From positions 85,878 through 149,877 of the forward strand of contig JAHFNJ010000001.1 of the NCBI GenBank assembly GCA_023267375.1: 64,000 bases of DNA. Reading direction: 5' to 3'. Below are positions 9,476-45,820 of the stretch, piece by piece. Position 1 is the first letter of the stretch. Each line of letters begins with the position of its first letter. This DNA comes from Candidatus Nomurabacteria bacterium (GTDB taxonomy: Bacteria; Patescibacteriota; Minisyncoccia; Phycocordibacterales; UBA9973). Position numbers and translations under genes: made by a program. The notes under the pieces are model-generated. The model had not been told where the DNA came from. It saw nothing but the letters and a program-made list of their open reading frames with translations, and did no database searches.

Positions 9476-11944
9476 TTACTCCAAAATTTTCCGCAGCACA
9501 TCTTCAGGTACTTCTTTCGGTTTCTTTGTTTTGACTGGTGCGGGTGTTTCCTCAGCCTTTTCAGGTTCTGCTTTCAATTCAGCTTGTTTCTTTGCCTGTT
9601 CTGCCGCTTCTTTTTCAATACGTGCCGCATTTTCAGCATACACCCTCCGCTCTTCATCAAGGCGTGCTTTTTCTCTTTTGATTTCTTCTTCCCGCTCTTT
9701 TAATTTTTGAATTGTTTCGGCTTCAACCTTCTTACGCTCCTCTTCTTCTTTTTGGCGACGTAACGCAGACTCTTTCTCATCTCGTTCTTTTTGTGCCTGT
9801 ATTTCCTGCTCACGCTCTTTTTGTACTCGCTCGCGTCGCTCCTTCTCTTCTTTTTCTTCGCGTTCTTTGAGTATGCGCAATTCCGCTTCCTCGCGCTTTT
9901 TTATTTCATCCCCAGTATCTTTGCTTTCAGCAGGGGCTGGTGGCGGAACAGGAACAGATGAAGAAGAAGGTACACTTGTTGGTGCGTTAGCTTTCATCGC
10001 TCGAGCAATAACATCTTTCAATCCAGAAACATGTTCTTCGGATGCTTCTTTTTTGGAAAATTTACTGAGAGCATCATTAACTGGGGCAGGATCTTTTTTG
10101 AGAGCTGCAAGTGACACCGGTTCTGGTTCTTTCTTTGGAATTTCCGCTTGTACTTCCTCTTTCACCTCTTCCTTGGGACGCGTAGAAAACACTACTCCAG
10201 CATTGTTGAGTGCTGCCGTTAATGCATCCTTCAAATTGGTACGATTTGGAAATTCTTTCTTTGGTCGTTCAGCTGCCTGACCACTCATTGGCGGATTCTT
10301 TTTAAATACTTTTGGCGCGCCACTATCAGCAGGAGCTCCGCCTGAATTGAATGTCGGAGCAATGCTTCGCGGGACAAATGGTTTTTTCGGACCAGTTTCT
10401 TGCGCGCCGAATTCAATACCGAGAGCAGAAAGATCTGCCACTGCACGGCGGTCATCACCTCGCCCCTTCATCATGAATCCCTGCGCTGGCTTCAATTCGC
10501 CGTTCTTAATTTTCAACATACAGTCCTTGCAGTAGACAGGTCGGCCAGGAATCGGTTCAAATGGCACCATGGTTGTCTTTCCGCAGTTTGAACATTCTGC
10601 TTTAAACTTTCCTTCCTCAACCAAATCACCTTCCCCGGTAATCGTCATACCACTCCACTTGTTTATTTCTGCCTCGATCACTCCCCGTGGACGTGTATAC
10701 AAATCGCGAGAAGACTGAATAATCTTATCAACCACTTCTTTCGAGTTTTCAACTTTGATCGGCGGTAATGTTGTCGCAGAAAATGGCCGACTCGTTATGC
10801 CATCAACCATCAGTTTCAAATACACATTATAGTTCGGCAGGTTCACAATATCCTGCGGCGTAAATTCCGGCTCAAATTCATTTTCCAAAAATTCTGCGTC
10901 AGCTGCACCGACACGGAAAATAATCATCGTTCCGACGTTACCGAACACGGCGTCGCGGACAATGGTATTTGATTCGGTCACCAACTGCCCGATGTACTGG
11001 TGCGCGAGCGTAAGGTTCAAGCGGTACTTACGAGCTTCCGAAAGAATGTTTGAAAACGAATCTGTTGCAAAGTTCTGGAATTCGTCGACGTACATGTAAA
11101 AGTCCTTACGATCATCTTCTGGGATACGCACACGTTCCATCGCTGCAAGCTGGATTTTCGTAATGAGCATACCTCCCAAAAGTGCAGAGTTATCTTCACC
11201 GATGCGTCCTTTCGATACGTTCACGAGAAAGATTTTTCCCGAGTTCATGATGTCAAAAATATCAATTGTCGATTTTGACTGACCAACCACGTTTCGAATA
11301 AGTGATGTCGACAGGAACTGCCCGACTTTGTTTTGAATCGGAGCGATTGCTTCGTTACGGAACTGATCGCGCCATGCTTCGTATTCATGGATCCAGAATG
11401 CTTTCACCACCGGATCTTTCAAGTTATTCACAATCGTCTGACGAAACTCCTTGTCCACCAGCAAACGCGGAATACCCAAGAGTGTGGAGCCGGGCGTGTC
11501 CAAGAGCGCCAAAATGGCGTTGTTCAAAATATATTCCATTCGGGCACTCCAAGCATTTGCCCAAATCTTAGTGAAGATGCCCATGAGGCCAGACGCCACC
11601 AAGTGCTTGTACTTAGGATCATCAATCTGAATGACGTTGAAACCGATATGGTAGTCCGTATCAGCAGGGTTGAAATACACCACGTCTTTGACGCGATGCG
11701 GCGGAATTGATTCCAAAATGCCTTCAACCAATTCACCGTGCGGGTCGATAACACAGACCCCCTCGCCATTCTGAATGTTCTGGATAATCATGTTGGAAAG
11801 AAGCACCGATTTACCGGTACCTGACTTTCCCAAAACATACATGTGCTGACGGCGGTCTTTTCGCTTTATGCCGAAGAGACGGTCGCTATTTCGGTAATTG
11901 GTTTTGGCAAAATACGTAATATCCTTTTTGGGATCGAGCTGCAT
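9476..11944 (-). CDS. Soluble TraD/VirD4-like (type IV coupling protein-like) P-loop ATPase of the FtsK-HerA superfamily, with a C-terminal zinc ribbon and a charged coiled-coil tail (ATPase-1)
   Basis: Walker A is GKSGTGKS, followed by VIDPHGE. The Walker B/TraG-D_C-like region reads YVDEFQNF...ARKYRLNLTLAHQYIGQL. No N-terminal TM helices. The C-terminus has CSNCGKTT...YCKDCM (CxxC-x18-CxxC), then a ~250 aa Lys/Glu/Arg-rich low-complexity tail. Paralogous to 22348..23808. Confidence 0.7.
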   Translation of the reverse strand: MQLDPKKDITYFAKTNYRNSDRLFGIKRKDRRQHMYVLGKSGTGKSVLLSNMIIQNIQNGEGVCVIDPHGELVEGILESIPPHRVKDVVYFNPADTDYHIGFNVIQIDDPKYKHLVASGLMGIFTKIWANAWSARMEYILNNAILALLDTPGSTLLGIPRLLVDKEFRQTIVNNLKDPVVKAFWIHEYEAWRDQFRNEAIAPIQNKVGQFLSTSLIRNVVGQSKSTIDIFDIMNSGKIFLVNVSKGRIGEDNSALLGGMLITKIQLAAMERVRIPEDDRKDFYMYVDEFQNFATDSFSNILSEARKYRLNLTLAHQYIGQLVTESNTIVRDAVFGNVGTMIIFRVGAADAEFLENEFEPEFTPQDIVNLPNYNVYLKLMVDGITSRPFSATTLPPIKVENSKEVVDKIIQSSRDLYTRPRGVIEAEINKWSGMTITGEGDLVEEGKFKAECSNCGKTTMVPFEPIPGRPVYCKDCMLKIKNGELKPAQGFMMKGRGDDRRAVADLSALGIEFGAQETGPKKPFVPRSIAPTFNSGGAPADSGAPKVFKKNPPMSGQAAERPKKEFPNRTNLKDALTAALNNAGVVFSTRPKEEVKEEVQAEIPKKEPEPVSLAALKKDPAPVNDALSKFSKKEASEEHVSGLKDVIARAMKANAPTSVPSSSSVPVPPPAPAESKDTGDEIKKREEAELRILKEREEKEEKERRERVQKEREQEIQAQKERDEKESALRRQKEEEERKKVEAETIQKLKEREEEIKREKARLDEERRVYAENAARIEKEAAEQAKKQAELKAEPEKAEETPAPVKTKKPKEVPEDVLRKILE

Positions 11945-11983: not shown

Positions 11984-13675
11984 CTACAATAGCTCCTTTT
12001 GGTAACACTCCTCGCAATAAACTGGACGAGGTTCTTTTTCCGTAAAAAAGGTCTCAAATGTATTGGAGCATTGCCCTGTATGATTGTGAGTTCCAGAACG
12101 GCAATCACATTGACGAGAAACGAGGTCATACCCACCTCGCATAGCTTCACGCTCAGCGTGTCGACAAAAGAAACATTCTGTCGGAATAGGAATAGAAAGT
12201 CTCTTATAGAGGAGTAATTCTTCGGGTAGAATCTTATAATTTCTTTGGCACTTTAGACATGCAAGGATTTCTTTCGTAAAAGAATCACTGACTTCATTGA
12301 TTGAATCTGGAACATCTTCTTGTTTAATTGTTTCCCTACCTCTTGTTTCCTGTATTTCATCTTGCCATTTATACCCTGCATTAAGCGCCTCTTCTTTTGA
12401 AAAAAGAAGCTCTTTCTGTGCTTGGGTTTCATTTACCCCGAATGGAGAATACTTTGTTGGGAAAAATTCCCCCCATTCTCCCCGTGATTTCATGTCAGCG
12501 ACAATTGTTTTATAGAGAGCTAGGTATTCTTCTTTTGAATACTTTTTATTAAGAATAGAGTATTCTCCTTTTTTAATACCCACGCAACCTAATAAATACT
12601 GTGAAGAGTGACAATCAAAACAGTATGCAACGTAATTATTTTTCCACGATTCGAGTGTCGCAATACTATGGTATGAATGATCTGGAGTAATACATTCATA
12701 GGAAAGTTCTGTTTCCCCTCCTACTGTACAGTCATAACATGATTTAAAAGTGACGCCATTATAGACATATTTTGAATCTTCCGAAAAAGATGCGAACATG
12801 GCGTTTTTGGTGTTTTTCGAACGAATCATATCAGTCCCAGTACACGAAACACAATTACGGAGTTCTGCGTACTGGCGAGGCTTATCTTGTAAAAATTCCC
12901 CAAACTCTTGCTTTGCTCTTTTATAACCGATTCGCGTATGTAAATTGTATGAAGCTATTATTTTTTCGTATTCCTCTTTTGAGTACTGTTTATTTTGGAA
13001 ATAGTACTTTTTGTTCCGAAGTCCCGATGACATAAAACAATCCTGACACCCGCGACAGTCGTAACAAAAAGCACAATTGATACAGGCGGTACACCAGTAA
13101 ACACTTTTACAATTTGAAACGCCATTTGCCATCGCTCCATCATAGGTATACTGTGATTCCTCTGCTATACCAAAACAGTCGGATAAATCTTTCCCTGCCG
13201 CAAGAGAGACAGAATTAAAAACGTTTTCGAGCTTCCATGCGATAAAAACCATGGCACAATTCTTTGAAAACGCCACATCGTTCGTATACAGACAATTCGT
13301 ACTGGCTATATCATTGTCATTTATTACGCCAAGTGTCGGCGTTCGTCTATATAAATCGATACATTGTTCAATAAAAGAACGCTTTGGATCATACTCCATA
13401 CCATAATCATATGGATTCCAATTATCACTATGAAAACATTTTGGACACAATAACGAAAATGGTGTGTTCGGTGCATAGATAGAAATAAATTTTTTGCTAC
13501 ATAAACTACACTCTCGAGAATAGAGAGTGCAATCATTTCTCCATGAAAGGCGGCGGATTCTGCGACAATGTGAGCAGAGCGTAGGAGCTGGGACTTCCAT
13601 TTTTTCGTAAAACGAAAAATCATCTGGTTCAATGATAAAATCCTTTTTGCAGTTTTGACAGTTGCGGGTTTCCAT
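11984..13675 (-). CDS. Cys-rich multi-zinc-ribbon protein, paralog A of a five-member tandem family (unnamed family)
   Basis: 563 aa. Two N-terminal zinc ribbons (CQNC..CSHC and CSLC..CPKC). A central region has dense CxxC arrays and an internally duplicated LRNKKY..N.QYSKEEY motif. Two C-terminal zinc ribbons. No signal peptide. ATG at 13673-13675, only 4 nt from the stop of paralog B. Confidence 0.75.
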   Translation of the reverse strand: METRNCQNCKKDFIIEPDDFSFYEKMEVPAPTLCSHCRRIRRLSWRNDCTLYSRECSLCSKKFISIYAPNTPFSLLCPKCFHSDNWNPYDYGMEYDPKRSFIEQCIDLYRRTPTLGVINDNDIASTNCLYTNDVAFSKNCAMVFIAWKLENVFNSVSLAAGKDLSDCFGIAEESQYTYDGAMANGVSNCKSVYWCTACINCAFCYDCRGCQDCFMSSGLRNKKYYFQNKQYSKEEYEKIIASYNLHTRIGYKRAKQEFGEFLQDKPRQYAELRNCVSCTGTDMIRSKNTKNAMFASFSEDSKYVYNGVTFKSCYDCTVGGETELSYECITPDHSYHSIATLESWKNNYVAYCFDCHSSQYLLGCVGIKKGEYSILNKKYSKEEYLALYKTIVADMKSRGEWGEFFPTKYSPFGVNETQAQKELLFSKEEALNAGYKWQDEIQETRGRETIKQEDVPDSINEVSDSFTKEILACLKCQRNYKILPEELLLYKRLSIPIPTECFFCRHAEREAMRGGYDLVSRQCDCRSGTHNHTGQCSNTFETFFTEKEPRPVYCEECYQKELL

Positions 13676-13679
13676 AAAA

Positions 13680-15380
13680 TCAAACTATCTCTTGCTGATA
13701 ACAGCTTTCACAATACACAATCTCAGGTCTATTTGGCGCGTAACCCGTTTTCATAGCATTGCCACATTTATCGCAATTGCGATCATAGAGCTTCGGTGGG
13801 TTTGTTCGATCAAAACGCTCCTTCTGTCGACAAGTTGGACACCGAGAAGGTAGAGGCATACTGAGTTTACGCATTAACGAAAGTTCATTGGAAACAACAC
13901 GGAACGCCTTATTGCAACTTTCACAGGCAATCACTTCGTTAACAATTTCATCTTTTGTTCCGGTTATTGTATCTGGAATTTCATCTGCTTTTTTTGTGAT
14001 AGCGTACTGATTGGTTTCTGGCTCAAGCCAATCCATTCCATAGGCTGCAACTTCTTCTTGTGTCTTTGGAAAATAACGATGCGCAACAGTTTCATTGTAT
14101 GCAAATGGCGAAAAATCAAGAGGTAGAAATTCACCATACTTCCACTCCCTTCCTAATGCATCTATATATGGATTCTTCACCATATCTTCGCGAATGTGCG
14201 CAGCCAACTTTTCATATTCTTCCTTTGAATATTCTTTGTTTAAAATACAGTATTCTTTGCGCTTCAAACTCACACAACCAAAAACATTTTTAGACGCAAT
14301 TGTATATATACAATATTCATTATAAAGCGCGTTCGGCCAACTTTGATAACAAAATTTAACGTTATTTGCTCCTTCTCCTACGATCATACATTCATAAATA
14401 AGTTCTGCTCCATTTCCCCAACCTGTGTAATCGTAACAATCTCGTGCTGATGGAACACTAATCCAACCAATGTATCGCGAATCTTCTACTCCTGAAACCA
14501 TATATGCATTCTTTGCATTTTTTGATTCATACACATAATCCCCGGTAACATTTACATTTAAACTGTTACCACTGTATGCACGACGCGGATATGTATCCCA
14601 GAATGCTCGTGCTTTTTGTTTTATTCCATTGAGGGCCGAGCGAGAATCTAAGTTAAACTCTTTCAATTTCTCAAAATATCCTTCGCGAGAATACTGTTCA
14701 TTAAATATGCAGTAACTTTTATTGCGCAAGTTTACACAACCAAAACAATTCACACACCCAGCACAACTTCGAGAAAACCAAGTATCAGTACATGAATCAC
14801 ATTCTTCAGAAAAAAATGTGTTGTAACACTTATTACAACCAACATCTTCATAGCACAGCTCACAATCCTTCATGCGATAACAATCAGCTGAATCTTTGAG
14901 AGTCATAAGATACGATGAATAGAAGGTGTTCTCGCAGTAATCTGCCCAAAACGTCATATAGGTATTTTTCTGATAAGCTACAGCATTTGTGTATTCACTG
15001 TTCTCAAGAGTCAAATAAGCGCTTTCAAGTGCTGGCCATGGGACCGTATCGAGAAATTCCTTCATCTGCGCAAGAAATGGACGAGTTTGGTCATATTCTT
15101 TCGCATATTCAGTACCATCCCAGTCATCAGCCCACCAGCACTTCTGACAGTAAACAATTCGCTTGCGTTGCGGAGAAAAAACACTAAGCATGTTTTTTTT
15201 TCCACACTTGGCACAATCCCGTTTGTAAAGACTCCAGACATCGTTAAATGAAAGACGTCTGATTAGGCGGCATTCTGGGCACCATGTTGGTGGAGGAACT
15301 TTTATCTTCTCGTAAAAACCAAAATCATCTGGTTCTATCGTAAAATCTTTTTTACAGTTTTGGCAGTTTTTAGTTTCCAT
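13680..15380 (-). CDS. Cys-rich multi-zinc-ribbon protein, paralog B
   Basis: The ORF as given starts at a TTG (15407). The ATG at 15378-15380 gives METKNCQNCKKDF, which aligns with the N-termini of the other paralogs and lies 2 nt after the stop of paralog C. Same architecture as A. Confidence 0.75.
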   Translation of the reverse strand: METKNCQNCKKDFTIEPDDFGFYEKIKVPPPTWCPECRLIRRLSFNDVWSLYKRDCAKCGKKNMLSVFSPQRKRIVYCQKCWWADDWDGTEYAKEYDQTRPFLAQMKEFLDTVPWPALESAYLTLENSEYTNAVAYQKNTYMTFWADYCENTFYSSYLMTLKDSADCYRMKDCELCYEDVGCNKCYNTFFSEECDSCTDTWFSRSCAGCVNCFGCVNLRNKSYCIFNEQYSREGYFEKLKEFNLDSRSALNGIKQKARAFWDTYPRRAYSGNSLNVNVTGDYVYESKNAKNAYMVSGVEDSRYIGWISVPSARDCYDYTGWGNGAELIYECMIVGEGANNVKFCYQSWPNALYNEYCIYTIASKNVFGCVSLKRKEYCILNKEYSKEEYEKLAAHIREDMVKNPYIDALGREWKYGEFLPLDFSPFAYNETVAHRYFPKTQEEVAAYGMDWLEPETNQYAITKKADEIPDTITGTKDEIVNEVIACESCNKAFRVVSNELSLMRKLSMPLPSRCPTCRQKERFDRTNPPKLYDRNCDKCGNAMKTGYAPNRPEIVYCESCYQQEIV

Positions 15381-15382
15381 AA

Positions 15383-17080
15383 TTAAACAATTTCTTTTGT
15401 ATAACAATCCTTACAATAAACGATCGGTTTATTCTTGAGTAATTTAGAGACAGGTGTGGTTTTACCACATTGCACACATTGGCAGGTAGTCATTTTTGAT
15501 TCATCAAGCCACATATCGAGCTTTTCTCCTATGCGACAAAAAGGACACGCTCGTGGAAGCGGAAAGTGTCGGCCACGAAGAAAATCAAGTTCTGCTCTCA
15601 CAATCTTAAACCCTTTTTTACATAAAGTACACTGAATCACCTCTTTTAGAATCGTCTCGTCCACATCTTTGATATTGTCGGGCAAATCTTCGCTTCTTTT
15701 AGTAATTGCATGCTCAGTCGGTGTTTTCTCTTGCCAGTTATAACCATAGCTTACTGCATCACTCTCAGTCATTGGAAATACTCGCTGGGCCACTGTGGCA
15801 TTGTATGTCCAAGGACTTAGTGCTATTGGGAAAAATTCACCATAACGATAGACGTTGCCCCGCTTATCGGTATATGGCATGTCATTCATCTGTTGAATAA
15901 TTTTTCCACGAAGTGCATAAAATTCTTCTTTAGAGTACGGCTTATTAAAAATCGTGTACTCTCCTTTTTTTACACTCACGCACCCGAAAAATCCTCTCCC
16001 ACCAATAGTAAGAAATGAGTACTCCATGTCACTCCCCCCGATTGCACTTAATACACTCCATTTTATATTTTGAGCATTTTCACCTATAGTGAGAGAATCA
16101 TAAGAAAGTTCAGCACCTCCCCACCCAGTAATATCATATGAATCCTTCGTGTCATGTAAAAAATGAAGATACCTACCATCTTGGCACGTAACCAACTCAA
16201 AAGAATCTTTGCAATTTTTTGATTCAAAGATCATGTTCCCTGTGCAGCCAACAGACATGTCATCATAGTAGGCTTTTTGTGGAAACGAATCCCAATGTTT
16301 TTCCGTTTCCTTTTTTATTCCTTGATACTGTGCATACGACCCAAAATCGATCTGATCCAATCTATTAGAATATTCTTCTTTGGAAAGAGGTTCATTAAAA
16401 TAGTGGTATTTTTTATTTCTCAAATTCGCCGACCCAAAACAATTTTGGCAATTAGCGCAATTGCGCAAGAAATGGCAATTCATTGATTCAGTCACTTGAT
16501 TCCGCAACCCGACTCCACCGCTCACTTTAAAGATATGCATTGAGTCATAGCATCGATCGGAGCTCATAACGAGTGACGAATCAAGCATGGTGTTACTATG
16601 CATAATATAAACACCATAGGATGCATCCTCAGTCCAGTCGGTATTAAAAACCAAATAACAATTCTTAAGCGAACCAGTGTAGTTTGTATAGGGAGATGTC
16701 GCAATCACATTCTGCTCAATCGCAAGTGCAAGATGCGGGACTTCGTGCATAAGCTCATCAAACTGCTCAAAAAATGACCGAGAAAAATCGTAGTCGCGAG
16801 CATACGAAAGCGGGTCCCAACCATCGCCCCACCAACACGTCGGGCAATATACTGTATAGTTTGCTTCGAGTGGATACATAGAAATAGTATCTTTCTTACA
16901 TAAATCACAGGGACGTTTGTAGAGCGTTACTAAATTAAAAAAAGCGAGCCGACGCTGCAATCGACACTCTGCACAAAAGGTCGGCGGAGGTACTTTCATT
17001 TTTTCGTAAAAAGAAAAATCATCAGGTTCGATAGTAAACTGATTCTTACAATTCTGACAATTTTTTGTTTCTGAATTCAT
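15383..17080 (-). CDS. Cys-rich multi-zinc-ribbon protein, paralog C
   Basis: 565 aa, N-terminus MNSETKNCQNCKNQFTIEPDDFSFYEKMKVPPPTFCAECR. Shared WW.D.WDP and GEFFP motifs. Both copies of the LRNKKY..N...SKEEY motif are present, as are the C-terminal zinc ribbons. Confidence 0.75.
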   Translation of the reverse strand: MNSETKNCQNCKNQFTIEPDDFSFYEKMKVPPPTFCAECRLQRRLAFFNLVTLYKRPCDLCKKDTISMYPLEANYTVYCPTCWWGDGWDPLSYARDYDFSRSFFEQFDELMHEVPHLALAIEQNVIATSPYTNYTGSLKNCYLVFNTDWTEDASYGVYIMHSNTMLDSSLVMSSDRCYDSMHIFKVSGGVGLRNQVTESMNCHFLRNCANCQNCFGSANLRNKKYHYFNEPLSKEEYSNRLDQIDFGSYAQYQGIKKETEKHWDSFPQKAYYDDMSVGCTGNMIFESKNCKDSFELVTCQDGRYLHFLHDTKDSYDITGWGGAELSYDSLTIGENAQNIKWSVLSAIGGSDMEYSFLTIGGRGFFGCVSVKKGEYTIFNKPYSKEEFYALRGKIIQQMNDMPYTDKRGNVYRYGEFFPIALSPWTYNATVAQRVFPMTESDAVSYGYNWQEKTPTEHAITKRSEDLPDNIKDVDETILKEVIQCTLCKKGFKIVRAELDFLRGRHFPLPRACPFCRIGEKLDMWLDESKMTTCQCVQCGKTTPVSKLLKNKPIVYCKDCYTKEIV

Positions 17081-17141
17081 TTTATATAAAAAGAAACCAT
17101 GAGCGAGATGTGGCTCGCTTTAGCATTTTAAAATCGAATAC

Positions 17142-17447
17142 TCACCGCATCGTCTCAACCATCCATTCTTTATAGCTGTGATTCAATCGACGAATATCAA
17201 CTCCAGCTACAAGCGGTACACTATATGTATGATTTTGGGAAATAATGGTCTCAACTTCCTGCAATTTCGATTCGAGTGTCGTAATCAAAAGAATCGCTTG
17301 CAAATGATCTTTCATTACTCCTTCATACATATATATCGATTCGACAGGCCAAAAATCAACACAGGCCCCCACTTTTCGCGAGATGATGAGTGATCCCAAT
17401 TTTTTCGCTTCGGCTGTGGTTTCGCATGTTGTATAGACAAATACCAT
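17142..17447 (-). CDS. cutA: CutA1-like divalent-cation tolerance protein
   Basis: 101 aa. The motif GACVDFWPVESIYMYEGV...LLITTLES...HTYSVPLVAGVDI...YKEWMVE fits the CutA fold signature. It is followed on the minus strand by the hairpin GAGCGAG-ATGTGG-CTCGCT. Confidence 0.65.
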   Translation of the reverse strand: MVFVYTTCETTAEAKKLGSLIISRKVGACVDFWPVESIYMYEGVMKDHLQAILLITTLESKLQEVETIISQNHTYSVPLVAGVDIRRLNHSYKEWMVETMR

Positions 17448-17580
17448 AGAAATAGAGCCTTTTGGGCTTAATTAGCTTTCGACCTTTACGCTTTCATTAT
17501 ACACCTCAAAAAGCTAATCAATTTGATTGACGAAAGAAGCAAATACTGTATAATTTTTCAAAAATCAAAACTATACTGAA

Positions 17581-18024
17581 ATGAAGAAACTACTGCTCAT
17601 TCTGATGGTTGTCCTGACACAAACAGTGTACGCACAACCCAAAACTACACCTTCCCTTCCTGATGAAGATTACCGTCGCCCACCAATGTCACTCAAAGAA
17701 AAACATGTGTTGGCTATCAAAAACTACATTCCTGACCCGTGCCAGGAATCGTATGTAGTAAACAATAGTACAATTTATCGTTATCGTGATGTAAATAAAA
17801 ATGTGATCTTGTTGTTTCTTCCCAAAGATACAACCGTCGGCTTTGCGGTAGCCACCCACGACACGCTCGGCAATCACATGTTTATTCCATTTACAATCGA
17901 TAAAAAAATGTTCTTCTGGTATCTCGAAGAAAACGATAAAATAACATCGGAAGAAAACCTTGATGCACTGATGGAAGAAATTATTGTTATCTTATGGAAC
18001 AAGGACAAAAAGGCAAGGATGTAG
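17581..18024 (+). CDS. Small secreted protein (147 aa), hypothetical
   Basis: Signal peptide MKKLLLILMVVLTQTVYAQ. No known domain. It is the only plus-strand gene inside the paralog array. Confidence 0.55.
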   Translation: MKKLLLILMVVLTQTVYAQPKTTPSLPDEDYRRPPMSLKEKHVLAIKNYIPDPCQESYVVNNSTIYRYRDVNKNVILLFLPKDTTVGFAVATHDTLGNHMFIPFTIDKKMFFWYLEENDKITSEENLDALMEEIIVILWNKDKKARM

Positions 18025-18034
18025 GAATGTAATC

Positions 18035-18071
18035 TTTAAAGGGATGTTCGCTTTGCGAACATCCCTTTAAA
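18035..18071. terminator. Bidirectional rho-independent terminator
   Basis: TTTAAAGGGATGTTCGC-TTTGC-GAACATCCCTTTAAA: a perfect 14-bp stem between the convergent genes 17581..18024 (+) and paralog D (-). Confidence 0.7.
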
Positions 18072-18097
18072 TTTTAATATTAGCCACTAGACATTTC

Positions 18098-19837
18098 TCA
18101 TATAACTTCCTTTTGGTAGCAACTTTCACAATAAACTTTTTCCGGTCGCTCTGGCGCATAGCTTGTTTCAAATTCATTTGAACACTTACCGGAATGCTCA
18201 TGACTTCCCTCTTCGCACATACATGAACGATGCCAGAGTTTTAGCGGATTACGCAAACGGAGGCGTTTATAGTGTCGGCAATTGGGGCAGTGTCGAGGGG
18301 CAGCAATTGAATTCTTTTTTAAAAACAACAACTCTTCACTGGTTATTCGATATGCCCCCGTACACTGTGTAAGTTCACTTCCCCCTCCAAGACAAGCGAT
18401 GGTCTCATTTAAAATAGAGTTCTCCAGCTCATTTATATGATCTGGCAATTCACTCGCTTGTTTTGTAATTTTATAATCTTTATGTTCTGGTTTTCGAAAT
18501 AAGTATCCTTGAGCCTGTATTTCTTCTTCTTTTTTTGGAAAATATTCTTGGGCAATTGTTTCATTGTAGGCAAATGGCGAAATTTCACTCGGAAAAAATT
18601 CTCCGTATCGATACACCTGCCCCTTTGCATCAAGATACGGTACTGCTCGCATATGCTCTATAATTTTTGGTACCAATGTTTCGTATTCTTCCTTAGTATA
18701 TTGTTTATTCAAAATACAATACTCTTTTTTTCTCAAACCAATACATCCAAAAAGATTTTTAGAGTTGTAACACATGTAAGTATAACGAGTATTAAAAGAA
18801 CTATGTGTCAAAACGGCAAAATACTGATTTGCAGCTTTAATACCCGAATCAATTCCTTCATAGAGAAGCGTCGCCCCTCCACCACAACCATAACCGTCAT
18901 ATCCTTCTTTCAGGTCGATGACATGGGAAATATATTTTGAATCTTCAACTTCTCCGAAAACATCAAAACAGTATTTAACATTTTTTGAATTTCCGATATT
19001 GTCACCAGTTGCATTAACCGATTTGCCGATATTGCCATACTTATGTGGAAACTTTAGTACAAAATCGGAGTATTTTTCTTCAAAATTGGAGAGCGCTTTG
19101 TAACTTCCAAAATCTAAGGATTTTTTTTGATCCATGTATTCTTCTTTAGTGTACTGAGTATTGTAGATGCAATATTGTTTATTGCGAAGATTAATACAGC
19201 CGATACAATCTCGAAGATTTTTAGAGTGTTGCAGAAAAAAAGAATTGATTGATTCATCTGTGTTATATGAATAATGGGTCTGATAAAGGCCAGTACAAAT
19301 AACATCATTGGAGCTTTGCTCAGATTTTTCAACCGTGTCTATATCCATGCAATCTTTAAGTTCAACAGCACCACGAGAGTATGCCACTCTTTCATTGTTA
19401 AACGAGGCAAATGTTAAATAGCAATCTTTGCAATCAGCATTATGGTTGCCATAAGGAGAATTGACGACATTTGTATTTCCTAAATTTGCCAGAGGTACGA
19501 GAGAAAGCAACTTTTGAAATTGCTCAAAAAATGGTCGGGAAAAATCATATTCTTGACCAAACTCTATTGGATCCCATTCATCGCTCCACCAAATATCTCG
19601 ATCGTAGACTACTACCGGCGCCTCGGGGTGGAACATGGTTATCACCTGTTTGCCAGTTTTCGCACAGGTGCGTTTAAAGAGAGACCGTTCATTGCGCCAT
19701 GTTAGGCGACGAATCATTCTACATTCCGGACAAAATGTCGGTGGCGGCACTTTAATTTTCGTATAAAAATCAAAGTCTTCAGGTTCTATTGTGAAGTCTT
19801 GTTTGCAGTTTTGGCAGGTTTTTGTTTGAGAGTTCAT
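18098..19837 (-). CDS. Cys-rich multi-zinc-ribbon protein, paralog D
   Basis: 579 aa, N-terminus MNSQTKTCQNCKQDFTIEPEDFDFYTKIKVPPPTFCPECR. Both ..LRNKQYCIYNTQYTKEEY motifs are present. The C-terminus, CMCEEGSHEHSGKCSNEFETSYAPERPEKVYCESCYQKEVI, resembles that of paralog A. The stop of paralog E is 3 nt upstream. Confidence 0.75.
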   Translation of the reverse strand: MNSQTKTCQNCKQDFTIEPEDFDFYTKIKVPPPTFCPECRMIRRLTWRNERSLFKRTCAKTGKQVITMFHPEAPVVVYDRDIWWSDEWDPIEFGQEYDFSRPFFEQFQKLLSLVPLANLGNTNVVNSPYGNHNADCKDCYLTFASFNNERVAYSRGAVELKDCMDIDTVEKSEQSSNDVICTGLYQTHYSYNTDESINSFFLQHSKNLRDCIGCINLRNKQYCIYNTQYTKEEYMDQKKSLDFGSYKALSNFEEKYSDFVLKFPHKYGNIGKSVNATGDNIGNSKNVKYCFDVFGEVEDSKYISHVIDLKEGYDGYGCGGGATLLYEGIDSGIKAANQYFAVLTHSSFNTRYTYMCYNSKNLFGCIGLRKKEYCILNKQYTKEEYETLVPKIIEHMRAVPYLDAKGQVYRYGEFFPSEISPFAYNETIAQEYFPKKEEEIQAQGYLFRKPEHKDYKITKQASELPDHINELENSILNETIACLGGGSELTQCTGAYRITSEELLFLKKNSIAAPRHCPNCRHYKRLRLRNPLKLWHRSCMCEEGSHEHSGKCSNEFETSYAPERPEKVYCESCYQKEVI

Positions 19838-19840
19838 ACA

Positions 19841-21490
19841 CTAAGAAATTTCTCGTTGGTAGCAATCAATACAGGCGATCTTCTGATAGCCCCATGATTT
19901 TGGATAGTATGCCACCACCTCCTTCGCACAGTACGTGCAGCTATACTGTTCCCCTTTAGTTTGACTCATCGGCAACAATCGCTCTTTCGTTCGCACATCA
20001 AAGTGTACTCGCGGTAACGCGATATTTTTCCGCCTTAAAAATTGCAATTCTGTCTCTGCAATATTGTATCTCCAACCAGTAACCGGACAGATAAGCGCCT
20101 GTTTTGGAAGTGATGGATCAGCATTGGTGACTAAATCAGGAAGTTCTGACGTAGGAATACCTTCTACTTTTTTACCCTCACCCTCTTCCCAATACCCTCC
20201 GCGTTCAGCTATATACTCTTTTGTTACCTCAGGGAAATAGACAGCTGCAGTTGAAAGATTGTACGGACACAATCCGAGTGAGTATGGCGGAAACTTTCCA
20301 TACTCTCCTCGTACTTTCATATCTGCAATTATTTTTTCTTTCAAAGCTTCATATTCTTCCTTTGTATATTCTTTATTCAAAATACTGTATTTTTTCTTTC
20401 GTAGTCCGACACATCCAAAACAGTAATCCACTTCCAAGCATTGGTCACAGTATTCACTATAACGAGCACCATCACACCAAATGGAATATTTAAGCTGATA
20501 CCCATTGGTACAACAGCTATTATTTCCAGAATTTTCTAGCGTCCAGCAACCAGTCAGATCGATTGCGTCTTTTGTCTTTAACCCACGAAGACAGTTGGTA
20601 CAATTTTCTGATTCTTCCCAGCAAAAAACATTTGTACAGTTATTACAATTAGACATGTACGTACCCGTAGAATTTGTAGTTTTAATATTAAAGTTCTCTC
20701 GATGAACTGCATTTGATTTCAGAAGTTCAGCATATTGTTTTTTATATTTCTCCAATTGAACATGGGAACCCAAGTTAATTCCCTTCATTTTTTCTTCATA
20801 CTCTTCTTTAGTGTATTGTATATTTTCAATGCAGTATGACTTTCCTCTCAGATTCCAGCTCATAAAACAGTGCTGGCAGTTACGACAATCAAATAAAAAT
20901 GCACTTTCTATGCAATCTCTACAGTTCCTTGAAAAAAGAAGGCTATAGGAATTGAAACAGTACCCACAGTCATAGCATTGATCGAGCGTAAATACATGCG
21001 AAATGTCCGCTGAGTCTTTGCAATCCATGGCACGATAGCCATAGAGAAGATTCTCTGATCTTGCTATCGAACGAGAAAGGTAGCAATTTTTGGAATCCCA
21101 GGCATCATCAGCCCATTCACAGCCGACACTATTAGTCCCCATTTGATGGGGACGTGGCACTTTCTCTTGCAGTTCTTTGAGTTGCTCAAAAAACGGTCGA
21201 CTGGAATCATAGTCTTGTCCGTAGCTCATTGGATCCCAGGCATCACTCCACCATTCTTTGGCAGTATAGATAGGATAACGTGGATTTTCTGGCAATACTG
21301 TAATAAATTTTTCCCCAGAAAGACTAGAGGTACCTGCACGGAATTTACCAAACGGCCAGAAGGCAAAATGGTGTTTCCAACGACATGGAACACAGATATC
21401 AGGAACTTCAATCCCGACTTTTTCGTACATGCCACTCTCTCTGTCAGTTATATCAAATCCTACCTTACAATAGGCGCAGGTCTTTTGCAT
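19841..21490 (-). CDS. Cys-rich multi-zinc-ribbon protein, paralog E (most divergent, partly degenerate)
   Basis: 549 aa. N-terminus MQKTCAYCKVGFDITDRESGMYEKVGIEVPDICVPCR. It keeps WWSDAWDP, SRPFFEQ, both LRGKSYCIENIQYTKEEY / LRKKKYSILNKEYTKEEY motifs and the final zinc ribbon (CTYC..CIDC). It lacks the second N-terminal ribbon and the first C-terminal ribbon. Confidence 0.7.
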   Translation of the reverse strand: MQKTCAYCKVGFDITDRESGMYEKVGIEVPDICVPCRWKHHFAFWPFGKFRAGTSSLSGEKFITVLPENPRYPIYTAKEWWSDAWDPMSYGQDYDSSRPFFEQLKELQEKVPRPHQMGTNSVGCEWADDAWDSKNCYLSRSIARSENLLYGYRAMDCKDSADISHVFTLDQCYDCGYCFNSYSLLFSRNCRDCIESAFLFDCRNCQHCFMSWNLRGKSYCIENIQYTKEEYEEKMKGINLGSHVQLEKYKKQYAELLKSNAVHRENFNIKTTNSTGTYMSNCNNCTNVFCWEESENCTNCLRGLKTKDAIDLTGCWTLENSGNNSCCTNGYQLKYSIWCDGARYSEYCDQCLEVDYCFGCVGLRKKKYSILNKEYTKEEYEALKEKIIADMKVRGEYGKFPPYSLGLCPYNLSTAAVYFPEVTKEYIAERGGYWEEGEGKKVEGIPTSELPDLVTNADPSLPKQALICPVTGWRYNIAETELQFLRRKNIALPRVHFDVRTKERLLPMSQTKGEQYSCTYCAKEVVAYYPKSWGYQKIACIDCYQREIS

Positions 21491-22347: not shown

Positions 22348-23808
22348 TTAGATTAACGGCTCAGCGTTTTCTTCTACTTTCACTTCTGCTTTTACTTCTC
22401 CGCGTCCTTTACCAGTAATCGCGGCCTTTTCTTGGGCGCTGCGGATAATGGTGGATTCTTCCTCTTCAATAAGTTTTCTCGCCATGTCCATCGGAATGGA
22501 ATATTTTTTACGAGAAGCTTCAACAATGCGCTCACGGTACGATGGATGCGGTGGCGGTAATACTTTCAATGTTTCAGCAGAAAACGGATCGTACGATTCC
22601 CCATCGATTGTCATCTTGATAAAAAATTCGCCGATACCCAAGTTGATCATATCTTTTACATCGAATACTGGCGCAAATTCAGGCTTCAATTTTACGGCAT
22701 CGTCACCACCCACGCGGAAGGAAATGATCGAACCGACGTTACCGAGCACCGCCGCCTGCACCTTTGGAAGCAATTGACCGACGTATTGATGTGCCACGGT
22801 CAGATTCAATCCATACTTACGCGCCTCAGAGAGAATGTTTTCAAATGTATCAGTCACGATGTTTTGAAACTCGTCTACGTAAATATAAAAATCATCACGC
22901 TTGTCATGAGCAATTTTGGCGCGCGCCATTCCAGCTTGTTTGATTTTCGTGACAAACATCGAACCAAAGAAGCTTGAATTTTCTTCACCGATCTTTCCTT
23001 TTGAAAGGTTGATGAAAATGAGTTTCTTCGAATTCATAAGCTTTTCAATATCAATTTTGTTTTCTTTCTGTCCGAAGATGTTGCGAAGCATTGGGTCAGA
23101 GAGAAATTGTCCAAGTTTGTTCACAAGCGGAATGATCGCGTCCGTATCAAATTTTTCAGACCAGTCAGCAAATTCGATTGCCCAAAAGCGCTTCACCATA
23201 TCGTCTTCGATATATTCCACCACCTTTTGACGGTAGTTACGATCAGTCAACATCGAAATCATGCCGCGCATGGTAGCGTGCGGATAGTCGAGGAGTGCGA
23301 GCACAGTAAAACGAAATACGTGCTCAAGACGCGGCGTCCAGTTCGCACCGAATTGCTTTTCCATCACTTCAATGAGACCTTGGGTCAATTGGTGTTTGAA
23401 TGTTGGATCAACGTTTGCAAGCGGGTTGAATGACACTGGATATTCATAGTCAGATGGATCAATGATACAGACGTCATCAATACGCTCCTCGGGAACGAAC
23501 GCAAGAATATCTTCAATCGCTTCACCGTGCGGATCGACAAGGCAGAGTCCATGACCATACGCGATGTCTTGGCGAATCATGAGTTCCAATAGTTTTGACT
23601 TACCAACACCAGACTTACCGATGATATAGAGGTGACGACGGCGATCAACACGCTTTATGCCGAAGATAAATTTCTTTTCTTCGAGCGCTGCAACGTAGTT
23701 TGTACGTCCAATAAACGAAATTTCCTCAGGTCGAACCTGCCCATGAATCGGTAGTTCTGGTGGCGGAGACGCGTATTTGATTATTTGGATTTTATTGGCT
23801 CGAGCCAT
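22348..23808 (-). CDS. Soluble TraD/VirD4-like P-loop ATPase of the FtsK-HerA superfamily (ATPase-2), paralog of 9476..11944
   Basis: Walker A GKSGVGKS, then LVDPHGEA. Walker B/TraG-D_C-like region YVDEFQNI...ARKYGLNLTVAHQYVGQL. It aligns along its length with the N-terminal 480 aa of ATPase-1 and lacks the zinc-ribbon/charged tail. Its ATG overlaps the TAA of the upstream ABC exporter (TAATG). Confidence 0.7.
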   Translation of the reverse strand: MARANKIQIIKYASPPPELPIHGQVRPEEISFIGRTNYVAALEEKKFIFGIKRVDRRRHLYIIGKSGVGKSKLLELMIRQDIAYGHGLCLVDPHGEAIEDILAFVPEERIDDVCIIDPSDYEYPVSFNPLANVDPTFKHQLTQGLIEVMEKQFGANWTPRLEHVFRFTVLALLDYPHATMRGMISMLTDRNYRQKVVEYIEDDMVKRFWAIEFADWSEKFDTDAIIPLVNKLGQFLSDPMLRNIFGQKENKIDIEKLMNSKKLIFINLSKGKIGEENSSFFGSMFVTKIKQAGMARAKIAHDKRDDFYIYVDEFQNIVTDTFENILSEARKYGLNLTVAHQYVGQLLPKVQAAVLGNVGSIISFRVGGDDAVKLKPEFAPVFDVKDMINLGIGEFFIKMTIDGESYDPFSAETLKVLPPPHPSYRERIVEASRKKYSIPMDMARKLIEEEESTIIRSAQEKAAITGKGRGEVKAEVKVEENAEPLI

Positions 23809-25616
23809 TATTCGTCATTATACTCCATTTTTTCCTTTTTCTCACTGCCGTTTCCAGCCAAGAAACCACCGGCCTGCATGTCCCAGAGCTTTTTATACAG
23901 ACTCTCCTTTTTCTTGAGCAATTTTGCGTGCGACCCTTCTTCGATGATTACCCCTTGCTCAAGGACGACAATCCGATCCATTTTTTGAATGGTACTCAAC
24001 CGGTGCGCAATAACGAGCGTTGTCCTCCCTTTCATAAGCTCCACAAATGCTTCCTGAATATACGACTCACTGACACTATCAAGTGAACTAGTCGCTTCAT
24101 CAAGAATAAGGATTGGTGAATTTTTTAACATCGCTCGAGCAATAGCCACGCGCTGACGTTCTCCGCCAGAGAGCTTTACCCCACGCTCACCAACCAACGT
24201 ATCGTACCCATGCGGAAGCTGTAAAATAAATTCATGTGCATGCGCTTTCTTGGCAACCGTTTCAATTTCTTCATTCGTTGCGCCAGGGTTGCCGTAGGCA
24301 ATATTTTCACGGATCGTTCGATGGAACAAAATTGCTTCCTGTGGCACATAGGAAATAGCCCCACGTAGATCATCTTGGGTCACATTCCGTATATCTTGAC
24401 CATCAATGGTAATAGAACCGGCAGTCACATCGGCAAAGCGAAGCAAGAGTTTTGTGATTGTCGACTTACCTGCACCAGAATGACCGACGAGACCGATCCG
24501 TTCACCAGGTTTGATCTCAAGATTGAAATTGTTAAATACTGACACGCCATCCTTGTAAATGAACGAAATATTCTTGAATTTTATGCACCCACCATTCATT
24601 GTAATTGGCTCAGGGTGCACGGGGTCAGCAATATCAATTGGCTGATCGAAAATATCAGTAATCTCTTTTACGTCGGTCACCGATTTTACAAAACGTGTCA
24701 TTGCTTTAGATAAATTCCAAAGACGGTCAAATAGATTGAGCATATAGGTTTCAACCAACACAAATACGCCAGTTGATACAGCCCCCTCAACCCACCCATG
24801 CGCCATTTTATACAAGATAAAAATATGGATACCGACCATCAGTAAACTTTGCACACCATCTGAAACATTCCCTAAATACCATGACTTATTTCTCGCAATA
24901 AACTCACTACTTGTAATTGTCTTATAGTGGATAATTTCTCTATCACGAGCAGAAAATATTTTTATACTAAAAATATTTGAGAGCGCATCAGCTAAACTTC
25001 CCCCTACTTTTGAATCTGCGGCAGCTTCAAGCAAGTCAAATTTTATTTTGTAACGAATAAAGAAAAGTGTGATGACAACGTATATGATAGTCCACACAAC
25101 AAAGCCAACAGCAATACTGGGAGCTTTTATAAACAAAATGATAAAAACACCAATTACCGATAGAAATGTGGTGTAAAAATCCCACGTAAAAACATCATGC
25201 ATTGCTTCAAAACCTCGAACAAAACGTTTTGCTTTTGAAACCAAGCTCCCAGAAAACTGATTAGTAAAAAAACTGTACGAGTGTTTTGTTAATTTTTCAA
25301 AAGCATAATTGTGCAATTCACGTATTGTATTACTTTGAAAATACGTAGTAGTAAAACCACCAATTCTTCCAAGGACAAAACCTGCAACAAGACTCATCGA
25401 CATCAAAAAAATAAGGTATGTCAATTCTTGTGTGTAGACTATTCGATCTACTCCGGCACCTGAAAGCAGGTCAATTATTTTTTGTAACAGGAGCGGTGGA
25501 AGAATACCCAACGATAATACCCTTAAAAAATACACGACATAAAGTGACCAGAAAGAAACTGGGTATTTTCTAATGTGGGGCCAAATATGATTGAGGATTT
25601 TTTTAAATGAAAACAT
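23808..25616 (-). CDS. ABC transporter, fused permease/ATP-binding subunit (type I exporter, MsbA-like)
   Basis: Six predicted TM helices, then an NBD. Walker A GHSGAGKST. ABC signature LSGGERQRVAIARAM. Walker B ILILDEATSSLD. Confidence 0.85.
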   Translation of the reverse strand: MFSFKKILNHIWPHIRKYPVSFWSLYVVYFLRVLSLGILPPLLLQKIIDLLSGAGVDRIVYTQELTYLIFLMSMSLVAGFVLGRIGGFTTTYFQSNTIRELHNYAFEKLTKHSYSFFTNQFSGSLVSKAKRFVRGFEAMHDVFTWDFYTTFLSVIGVFIILFIKAPSIAVGFVVWTIIYVVITLFFIRYKIKFDLLEAAADSKVGGSLADALSNIFSIKIFSARDREIIHYKTITSSEFIARNKSWYLGNVSDGVQSLLMVGIHIFILYKMAHGWVEGAVSTGVFVLVETYMLNLFDRLWNLSKAMTRFVKSVTDVKEITDIFDQPIDIADPVHPEPITMNGGCIKFKNISFIYKDGVSVFNNFNLEIKPGERIGLVGHSGAGKSTITKLLLRFADVTAGSITIDGQDIRNVTQDDLRGAISYVPQEAILFHRTIRENIAYGNPGATNEEIETVAKKAHAHEFILQLPHGYDTLVGERGVKLSGGERQRVAIARAMLKNSPILILDEATSSLDSVSESYIQEAFVELMKGRTTLVIAHRLSTIQKMDRIVVLEQGVIIEEGSHAKLLKKKESLYKKLWDMQAGGFLAGNGSEKKEKMEYNDE

Positions 25617-25626
25617 TTGAAATGTG

Positions 25627-25699
25627 TGGACCGTACCGGACTCGAACCGGTCACCTCATCCATGCCATGGATGCACTCTACCAGATGAGCTAACGGCCC
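25627..25699 (-). tRNA. tRNA-Ala (anticodon GGC)
   Basis: Folds as a cloverleaf. Acceptor GGGCCGT/ACGGTCC has the G3:U70 alanine identity pair. Anticodon loop ATGGCAT. T-arm CCGGTTCGAGTCCGG. CCA is not encoded. Confidence 0.85.
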
Positions 25700-27505: not shown

Positions 27506-27588
27506 GCATTCGCACAGTAGTGCGAATATGCTTCCGCCTTCCACAAAATCACAAAACCTGCCGCGGGGCAGGTTGTTGTGTATTTTGT

Positions 27589-27660
27589 GGACCCTATCGG
27601 ATTCGAACCGATGACCTCCTCATTGCAAATGAGGCGCTCTACCAACTAAGCTAAGGGCCC
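27589..27660 (-). tRNA. tRNA-Ala (anticodon UGC)
   Basis: GGGCCCT acceptor with the G3:U70 pair. Anticodon loop TTTGCAA. T-arm ATCGGTTCGAATCCGAT. Followed on the minus strand by the terminator hairpin AACCTGCCCCGCGGCAGGTT and a T-rich tail. Confidence 0.85.
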
Positions 27661-45744: not shown

Positions 45745-45820
45745 GCCGCCTTAGCTCAGTTGGTAGAGCAACGCTTTTGTAAAGCGAAGGTCCTCGGTTC
45801 AAGTCCGAGAGGCGGCTCCA
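45745..45820 (+). tRNA. tRNA-Thr (anticodon UGU), CCA encoded
   Basis: GCCGCCT acceptor, D-arm GCTCAGTTGGTAGAGC, anticodon loop TTTGTAA, T-arm CTCGGTTCAAGTCCGAG, 3' AGGCGGCTCCA. Followed by the A-run/hairpin/T-run terminator at 45821-45849. Confidence 0.85.

Follow-up and report, generated by a model that had tools for sequence, protein, structure and literature searches.

Five paralogous genes (A to E, minus strand, positions 11984 to 21490) were analyzed in a 64,000-nucleotide stretch of a Candidatus Nomurabacteria genome (contig JAHFNJ010000001.1 of assembly GCA_023267375.1); the whole stretch is referred to below as the window. Their products share a five-part architecture, (ZnF-a, ZnF-b)–unit–unit–linker–(ZnF-a, ZnF-b), in which a double zinc-finger module recurs at both ends and a unit of ~150 residues occurs twice in the center, all copies in direct orientation. 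The explanation that we favor overall, with a probability of roughly 0.6, is that A to E belong to a two-repeat, five-part protein family encoded in arrays flanked by ATPase genes. The family is large, unnamed and chromosomal, and is found in Patescibacteria (candidate phyla radiation, CPR), mostly in Paceibacteria/Parcubacteria-type lineages. Known module types (treble-clef fingers and a predicted β-solenoid) are combined in it in a new, previously undescribed way, within a conserved gene cassette. Patescibacteria form a large part of bacterial diversity, and few of their lineage-specific proteins have been assigned a role. Although this family counts its members in thousands, with as many as nine ancient paralogs at one locus, the models of Pfam and NCBIfam cover no more of it than one small finger.

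The five genes are co-directional, with gaps of 2-4 nt between adjoining genes; the run is broken between C and D by two unrelated genes, one encoding CutA1 and the other an opposite-strand open reading frame (ORF) of 147 aa. The paralogs have 29-38% identity to paralog A, and are acidic (isoelectric points 5.4-6.1) and hydrophilic, with a Cys content of 4.5-6.7%. Inspection of the five sequences revealed no N-terminal hydrophobic stretch, and the proteins are therefore probably cytoplasmic. Coordinates are given below (orthogroups refer to a grouping of 421 family sequences).

Paralog A: 11984-13675, minus strand, 563 aa, orthogroup d; N-terminal zinc-finger module aa 1-94 (13394-13675), unit 1 aa 95-246 (12938-13393), unit 2 aa 247-395 (12491-12937), linker aa 396-467 (12275-12490), C-terminal zinc-finger module aa 468-563 (11987-12274).
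Paralog B: 13680-15380, minus strand, 566 aa from the ATG, orthogroup a (the most populous); N-terminal zinc-finger module aa 1-95 (15096-15380), unit 1 aa 96-245 (14646-15095), unit 2 aa 246-400 (14181-14645), linker aa 401-480 (13941-14180), C-terminal zinc-finger module aa 481-566 (13683-13940).
Paralog C: 15383-17080, minus strand, 565 aa, orthogroup e; N-terminal zinc-finger module aa 1-96 (16793-17080), unit 1 aa 97-247 (16340-16792), unit 2 aa 248-398 (15887-16339), linker aa 399-478 (15647-15886), C-terminal zinc-finger module aa 479-565 (15386-15646).
Paralog D: 18098-19837, minus strand, 579 aa, orthogroup b; N-terminal zinc-finger module aa 1-96 (19550-19837), unit 1 aa 97-244 (19106-19549), unit 2 aa 245-396 (18650-19105), linker aa 397-476 (18410-18649), C-terminal zinc-finger module aa 477-579 (18101-18409).
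Paralog E: 19841-21490, minus strand, 549 aa, orthogroup f (the most divergent); N-terminal zinc-finger module aa 1-93 (21212-21490), unit 1 aa 94-241 (20768-21211), unit 2 aa 242-391 (20318-20767), linker aa 392-462 (20105-20317), C-terminal zinc-finger module aa 463-549 (19844-20104).

Two kinds of internal repeat

For each protein, the first 95 and last 95 residues were compared by Smith-Waterman alignment with 300 shuffles, giving z = 17.2 (A), 25.5 (B), 8.8 (C), 15.9 (D) and 1.9 (E); the similarity has degenerated in paralog E, where it is not significant. The same approach applied to unit 1 and unit 2 gave z = 9.3 (A), 13.8 (B), 8.0 (C), 17.8 (D) and 14.5 (E), while control pairs (N-terminal module against unit 1, C-terminal module against unit 2) did not exceed z = 3.3. 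At the profile level, segments cut out of a 118-sequence family alignment were compared with hhalign: the N-terminal module (2-83) matched the C-terminal one (482-562) with a probability of 99.7% (E 4e-25, 81 columns, 35% identity), and unit 1 (101-238) matched unit 2 (252-392) with a probability of 99.6% (E 4.6e-24, 135 columns, 26% identity). Controls pairing the N-terminal module with unit 1, the N-terminal module with the linker, and unit 1 with the linker each gave a probability below 1%.

Proteins so rich in Cys might align by composition and recurrent CxxC spacing alone, and the loss of the N/C signal in paralog C on Cys masking (z = -0.4), together with the non-significant value for paralog E, is what such an explanation would predict; with every Cys masked, however, z remains at 10-14 for the terminal modules of A, B and D, which indicates more than CxxC spacing, and at 7-17 for the two units of all five proteins, and with profile E-values of 1e-24 to 1e-25 and clean negative controls a chance or compositional origin can be dismissed. 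By sequence comparison, both kinds of repeat are true homologous modules. There are just two of them, since hhalign detected no similarity between ZnF-a and ZnF-b, between the N-terminal module and the units, or between the units and the linker; a lag scan of the family profile likewise shows exactly two strong off-diagonals, at lags of 154 and 480.

An initial annotation, made from the letters of the sequence, had pointed to the resemblance of the two termini and to a duplicated KEEY motif, attributed both to an intragenic duplication, and proposed self-alignment as a check. The terminal resemblance is borne out by the profile comparison, with the single-sequence signal weak only in E; it extends over ~80 residues and two fingers rather than the ~31 residues of the example first given. 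The motif [ST][KR]E[EG][YF] does occur in exactly two copies per protein; these are 148-154 residues apart, not ~130, and each closes a duplicated unit of ~150 residues, so that self-alignment reveals significant repeats well beyond the short motif. Both hhalign and Smith-Waterman comparisons support intragenic duplication as the source of the repeats. On the DNA level, the KEEY-coding segment is seen as a 39-nt repeat in 9 copies with a within-gene spacing of 444-462 nt; the copies share only 64-79% identity, which gives no indication of recent gene conversion.

The zinc-finger modules

Each terminal module consists of two different Cys4 fingers, ZnF-a followed by ZnF-b. ZnF-a has the form CxxC-x24-CxxCR with the conserved signature F.I...D..FY.K..VP.P..C..CR, while ZnF-b has the form CxxC-x17/18-CxxC, as in PF23477/TIGR04272. 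All 16 ligand positions are Cys in paralog A (C6, 9, 34, 37, 56, 59, 77, 80, 473, 476, 501, 504, 523, 536, 554, 557) and likewise in paralog C (16/16). In paralog B the ZnF-b fingers read C56xxC59-x18-C78xxC81 and C536xxC539-x17-C557xxC560, a knuckle arrangement of the PF23477 type. Paralog D has lost three of four ligands of its N-terminal ZnF-b (T61, D79, I82), as have 68% of the members of orthogroup b, and the first knuckle of its C-terminal ZnF-a is C-x9-C. Paralog E lacks all four ligands in the N-terminal ZnF-b and three of four in the C-terminal ZnF-a, a loss common to the whole of orthogroup f.

Ligand loss is orthogroup-specific and affects the two inner fingers: the N-terminal ZnF-b is lost in orthogroups b (68%), c, f, h and l, and the C-terminal ZnF-a in f, i and l. 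The outermost fingers (N-terminal ZnF-a, C-terminal ZnF-b) are ~100% Cys in the ten largest orthogroups, with values of 97-100% for the C-terminal ZnF-b in the five largest. In 62 of 421 members, from A- and D-like orthogroups, a CxC-x4-6-HxH-x3-4-C insertion replaces the first knuckle of the C-terminal ZnF-b and could provide an additional or alternative metal site. It is present in two of the window's paralogs:

Paralog A: aa 523-536 (~12068-12109, minus strand), CxC-x6-HxH-x3-C.
Paralog D: aa 539-552 (~18182-18223, minus strand).

The PF23477 (zf_Tbcl_2) model matches paralog B at aa 52-82 with 37.4 bits (cutoff 27), scores below cutoff in A (17.7 bits) and C (19.5 bits), and has no match to D or E in a Pfam scan; the corresponding NCBIfam model, TIGR04272, scores 30.3 bits in B against a cutoff of 36. 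Known examples of this finger are small stand-alone proteins or C-terminal tags, whereas the ZnF-b copies at both ends of the family proteins, which have its spacing, are always paired with an upstream ZnF-a, and the pair occurs twice around a 400-residue core. A CxxC-x17-CxxC domain binds zinc in small proteins of Methanosarcina mazei, as measured by inductively coupled plasma mass spectrometry (PMC12704099). The paralogs have as many as four Cys4 sites each, of a kind known from other proteins to bind zinc.

For ZnF-a, the Pfam scan gave no significant match; PF13451 (zf_Tbcl) matched only D, with E 0.74 and 10.3 bits (cutoff 24). In a Foldseek comparison with viral models, the 41-residue ZnF-a was the only part to match, superposing on phage ‘putative zinc-ribbon domain’ proteins with a root-mean-square deviation of 0.5-0.9 Å over 41 residues (32-34% identity, E 0.8-1.6, probability 0.95-0.97). 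Distant homology of ZnF-a to PF13451 is thus plausible but unproven: structural superposition on phage members is set against the lack of a significant sequence match to the Pfam model.

In an AlphaFold2 (AF2) model of paralog B, each finger has its first knuckle in a β-hairpin and its second at the point where a helix begins (helices at residues 35-43, 79-82, 515-524 and 558-565). A second knuckle at the N-terminus of a helix defines a treble clef, so the ‘zinc ribbon’ label of the initial annotation does not fit the model; in a classical zinc ribbon both knuckles would sit in β-hairpins of a three-stranded sheet. The LIM domain of CRP1 (PDB 1ctl, 1b8t) also consists of two consecutive Cys-rich treble-clef fingers, and a profile search of PDB gave a weak partial match between the second ZnF-a knuckle plus ZnF-b and CRP LIM domains (E 7e-4). 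LIM fingers are 2 residues apart and include His/Asp ligands, in contrast to the spacer of ~18 residues and all-Cys ligands of the family; with a match that also omits the first knuckle, we rejected LIM membership. Apart from the basic C-terminal ZnF-a (+4.7), no module stands out by its net charge.

Central units and linker

No Pfam or NCBIfam model covers the 400-residue core in any of the five paralogs. Each central unit of ~150 residues is predicted to comprise a helix, a β-solenoid, a capping hairpin (FGCxNLRxKxYCIxN) and the ‘YSKEEY’ helix. The linker is an α/β domain of ~80 residues (401-480 in B) with the highly conserved motif YGEFFP..SPF.YNET, and is confidently modeled. The full-length AF2 model of paralog B, computed from a 102-sequence alignment, has a mean predicted local distance difference test score (pLDDT) of 81.7 and a predicted template modeling score (pTM) of 0.87, with pLDDT ~90+ for the fingers and linker; short strands in the central units already recur there every 12-13 residues. 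Unit 1 of paralog B modeled alone, from a stacked alignment of units 1 and 2, reaches pLDDT 84.3 (90-97 in the core) and shows some eight coils of 12 residues, every coil having two strands (strand autocorrelation 0.60 at lag 12, 0.45 at lag 6). Peaks at lags 12, 24 and 36 also appear in the sequence profile of unit 1, and the periodicity of unit 2 is 12-13. The central unit is thus predicted to be a narrow β-solenoid with 12-residue coils and no close solved relative; if the prediction is confirmed, a cytoplasmic protein of bacteria with such solenoid coils would represent an unusual variant of the fold.

Foldseek searches of PDB with the full-length model returned nothing below E 0.5. The weak matches of this model and of the unit-only model (best E 0.017) are all β-solenoids (LpxD, γ-carbonic anhydrase, GlmU, SufBD, the SV2 luminal domain, MfpA, Qnr and CAP/RP2), and as the sole structural neighbors they support this fold class. 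Resemblance to the pentapeptide-repeat and other β-solenoids among them (MfpA, Qnr, SV2, CAP/RP2, LpxD, γ-carbonic anhydrase) stops at that level: E is ≥0.017, TM-scores are ≤0.36, and their sequence motifs are absent. Coils of pentapeptide-repeat and other β-solenoids generally have 18-20 residues, versus 12 here. A pentapeptide-repeat or hexapeptide (left-handed β-helix, LβH) assignment was rejected on the period of strands and profile, which is 12 (12-13 in unit 2) and not 20 or 18. The beetle antifreeze protein TmAFP (PDB 1EZG) shares with the unit a coil length of 12 residues and Cys that recur at fixed positions of the coil; TmAFP coils have the form TCTxSxNCxxAx (PMC8038014). It is a secreted, disulfide-bonded protein of ~10 kDa with another motif, and is absent among the Foldseek matches of the unit model, so the resemblance is a geometric analogy only.

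B-type proteins have the pattern CxxCxxCxxC in the final solenoid coil of unit 1 (aa 206-215 of paralog B, ~14736-14765), with Cys in 84-99% of sequences. Other orthogroups have part of this rung, and unit 2 lacks it; in paralog A it is lengthened to seven Cys at every third residue (aa 195-213). It may represent a fifth metal or Fe-S site, or merely small core residues.

Extent and history of the family

More than 7,800 relatives, all named ‘hypothetical’, come from Patescibacteria, and we found no description of this family in the literature. A unit profile searched against 1.84 billion representatives matched 3,816 clusters (50% identity) at E ≤1e-3 and 1,513 at E ≤1e-30; every one of the best 150 of the 3,816 representatives has at least two matched unit stretches. 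Of the 81 loci that we retrieved, 79 belong to GTDB species representatives and 2 to metagenome contigs; with the window they make 82 regions. All but one locus have Patescibacteria-type, generic ‘bacterium’ or uncultured labels, including Nomura-, Jorgensen-, Staskawicz-, Giovannoni-, Lipton- and Niyogibacteria and Paceibacterota. Several are from metagenome-assembled genomes (MAGs) with unconfirmed ‘Saccharibacteria’ labels, and the single contig labeled Gammaproteobacteria (L051) is probably mis-binned. A tblastn search of phage and plasmid collections found no match, so that within these sets the family does not occur as cargo of mobile elements, and PADLOC had no match to paralogs A, B or E.

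Complete members in the 81 loci have ~540-650 residues (540-600 in 191 of 248 matches), and shorter matches are contig-end or split genes. In several loci (L033, L035, L015, L019 and others) the tblastn match spans ~2,000-2,500 nt instead of ~1,700, and in others family genes lie in two adjoining pieces (e.g., 295 + 282 aa in L036, 381 + 189 aa in L067); we attribute these split or over-long matches to frameshifts, assembly errors or masked stretches in MAGs, and not to shorter members. Neither the 81 loci nor the best 150 representatives included a single-unit or single-module ancestor.

Modules at the same position in different paralogs are more alike (mean Smith-Waterman scores 172 and 194) than the two copies within a protein (95 and 109). 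The internal duplications therefore preceded the gene duplications, as the initial annotation had supposed. Its picture of one half-protein duplication producing a pseudo-dimer is incompatible with the module order Zn–unit–unit–linker–Zn: had a Zn–unit half been duplicated in tandem, the order would be Zn–unit–Zn–unit. At least two separate internal duplication events, or a later rearrangement, are thus required. Nor was the five-fold gene duplication ‘later’ in the sense of recent. Paralogs A to E fall into five separate orthogroups that recur in other Paceibacteria, arrays of other genomes are mixtures of orthogroups, and B-type orthologs are 55-70% identical across Brenner-, Lipton-, Jorgensen- and Nomurabacteria; judged by these groupings, the expansion of the gene family is itself ancient.

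ATPase genes flank the arrays

Family genes occur in co-directional arrays of up to 9. By far the commonest array neighbor is the VirD4/TraD/HerA-like ATPase family, with 60 ORFs in 35 of 82 regions. An ATPase gene lies within 10 kb in 34 of the 81 fetched loci, and in 16 of the 23 loci that have four or more family genes. The order ATPase2–CutA–array–ATPase1 recurs in L019, L024, L029, L053 and L079, typically with an LTD/PKD protein next, and the order in the window is ATPase2, E, D, CutA, C, B, A, ATPase1, LTD protein. The same cassette was found in Jorgensenbacteria and in a JGI contig. The neighbors in the window are as follows.

LTD–PKD protein: 7988-9448, minus strand, 486 aa, downstream of ATPase1; Pfam LTD (7e-27) and PKD.
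ATPase1: 9476-11944, minus strand, 822 aa, a soluble VirD4/TraD/HerA-like P-loop ATPase directly downstream of paralog A.
CutA1 homolog: 17142-17447, minus strand, 101 aa, inside the array; PF03091 (8.5e-23).
147-aa ORF: 17581-18024, plus strand, with a signal-peptide-like N-terminus.
Perfect 17-bp hairpin: 18035-18071, between the 3' ends of paralog D (minus strand) and the 147-aa ORF (plus strand); from a terminator scan, a consensus match only.
ATPase2: 22348-23808, minus strand, 486 aa, a second soluble VirD4-like ATPase, upstream of the array.

ATPase1 matches TrwB_AAD_bind (6e-11), DUF87, TraG-D_C and, with 51 bits, PF23477 in Pfam. Its finger, CxxC-x17-CxxC at aa 447-478, resembles the ZnF-b of the family (z = 4-12) and precedes a K/E-rich, low-complexity tail of ~340 residues. 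ATPase2 matches T4SS-DNA_transf, DUF87 and TrwB_AAD_bind in Pfam and, below cutoff, a CD1115-type VirD4-like model in NCBIfam (1.8e-14). Its start adjoins the stop of an ABC exporter gene (23808-25616, minus strand); in locus L001 the corresponding gene is preceded instead by DUF8128 and a small ORF. The NCBIfam TraD/VirD4 matches of both ATPases are far below cutoff (e.g., 53.5 bits versus 250), both N-termini are hydrophilic and not membrane-anchor-like in sequence, and the window ORFs covered by a Pfam scan include no virB4 or relaxase. A status as type IV coupling proteins was rejected on these grounds; the sequences identify both as distant ATPases of the VirD4/HerA superfamily, and in PADLOC they match generic HerA/mad8 models only. 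A 2025 survey counted 5,713 VirD4-like genes in 2,918 Patescibacteria genomes, of which only 148 are near virB4, and its authors raise the possibility that such genes have been exapted (PMC12102498).

In 12 regions, the window being one of them (others are, e.g., L001, L009, L015, L019, L024), CutA either heads an array or lies within it, a recurrent pairing of a putative metal-tolerance protein with Cys-rich zinc-finger paralogs. The 147-aa ORF has no Pfam, NCBIfam or PADLOC match. Promoter and terminator scans were at background level except for the one strong hairpin. It is positioned as a convergent terminator would be, and the array is probably divided by it into one transcription unit of E-D and another of CutA-C-B-A-ATPase1. 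The LTD–PKD protein has a hydrophobic N-terminus and C-terminal stretch, read as a putative signal peptide and anchor, and is found at the same position in L002, L012, L024, L029, L058 and L079. Its N-terminus is weakly similar to that of the extracellular exonuclease ExeM, suggesting a DNA-binding role at the surface.

Possible functions and alternatives

We tentatively propose that the paralogs are distinct, non-redundant subunits or adaptors of one ATPase-driven cytoplasmic assembly, a possibility short of an even chance. The β-solenoids would act as rigid spacers, and the zinc-finger modules at both tips as contact points, either for nucleic acid or for the ATPase; ATPase1 carries the same type of finger. 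The most likely process would be the handling of DNA or nucleoprotein, a substrate made plausible by the ATPase superfamily and the adjoining LTD protein. Type IV coupling protein complexes include zinc-binding adaptor subunits, e.g., Legionella DotL–DotN, and here too a VirD4-family ATPase is genetically linked to Cys-rich partners with predicted zinc binding. The window ATPases differ in that they have no membrane-anchor-like N-terminus and are not beside virB4; the analogy is one of mechanism only.

More speculatively, and with rather lower odds, the cassette could encode an undescribed cytoplasmic machine widespread in Paceibacteria, in which 5-9 ancient paralogs would form a hetero-oligomer. 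Each paralog would be a rigid double β-solenoid, with an unusual 12-residue coil geometry and zinc fingers at both ends, and exapted coupling-protein ATPases would power the handling of DNA, whether incoming or chromosomal; a link to DNA scavenging is hinted at by the LTD surface protein encoded nearby. If true, this would account for roughly two ‘orphan’ VirD4 homologs per Patescibacteria genome that lie far from a type IV secretion system (T4SS). The repeat itself is of moderate interest, and the link to orphan VirD4-like ATPases of more: it provides the first concrete candidate partner set for ‘orphan’ coupling-protein homologs left unplaced in the 2025 survey (PMC12102498). The link makes the question testable by co-purification, zinc stoichiometry and DNA binding, while the architecture (double finger, two solenoid units, linker, second double finger) offers clean domain boundaries for structural and biochemical work.

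Several observations weigh against the overall account or parts of it. The solenoid region has a pLDDT of only 56-68 in the full-length model, so the 12-residue coil rests on the second model and on sequence periodicity, and no PDB neighbor of either model has E<0.01 (best E 0.017, for the unit-only model). Charge analysis of the domains gave no clear or strong indication of nucleic-acid binding. In 47 of the 81 retrieved loci no ATPase lies within 10 kb; most of these have a single family gene or are located at the end of a contig. Finally, synteny could reflect a conserved operon of unrelated functions, and the functional role is read from context.

Three other functions were considered, each less consistent with the pattern of conservation than a role as subunits or adaptors. 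In the first, the proteins would join CutA1 in metal or redox handling (storage, buffering or delivery of zinc or iron-sulfur), with the Cys-rich solenoid and the fingers as metal sites. The high Cys content, the CxxCxxCxxC rung of unit 1 in B-type proteins, the CxC..HxH..C insertion and the presence of CutA1 within the arrays all suit such a role. However, the solenoid Cys are poorly conserved between orthogroups and mostly absent from unit 2, which fits small core residues better than ligands; some orthogroups dispense with whole fingers; and many strongly conserved positions are not Cys at all (D85, W87, Q105, N227, N381 and the linker motif). The biochemical role of CutA1 is itself unclear. 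We regard metal or redox handling as improbable.

We see equally little prospect for a structural filament or scaffold, in which solenoids would stack end to end as a bactofilin-like heteropolymer and the ATPases would be unrelated neighbors. The predicted β-solenoid would allow this, and several conserved paralogs are typical of hetero-oligomeric structures, but a conserved hairpin and helix cap each solenoid, which argues against open-ended stacking, and the ATPase linkage is the strongest signal in the gene context.

The least probable of the three is that the paralogs are secreted effectors, recognized by VirD4-like coupling proteins and exported through a Patescibacteria T4SS, with their multiplicity reflecting diversification. 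Coupling proteins do recognize substrates, effector genes are often paralogous and clustered, the arrays adjoin VirD4-like genes, and T4SS whose substrates are unknown are widespread in Patescibacteria (PMC12102498). Against export, neither ATPase starts with a hydrophobic segment, and the VirD4-like ATPases of Patescibacteria are almost all far from virB4. Orthogroups are 45-70% identical across classes and have a fixed architecture, a housekeeping-like pattern unlike that of an arms race, and up to four zinc-stabilized fingers and a solenoid would presumably be hard to unfold for export.

Other features of the window

The window is ordinary Patescibacteria (CPR) chromosomal DNA that also encodes RNA polymerase β/β', DnaG, UvrABC, Tgt, Ddl and a class II aminoacyl-tRNA synthetase. 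Two tRNA-Ala genes, with anticodons GGC and TGC, are located at 25626-25699 and 27587-27660 (minus strand), on either side of an amidase gene region, and a tRNA-Thr gene lies at 45745-45820.

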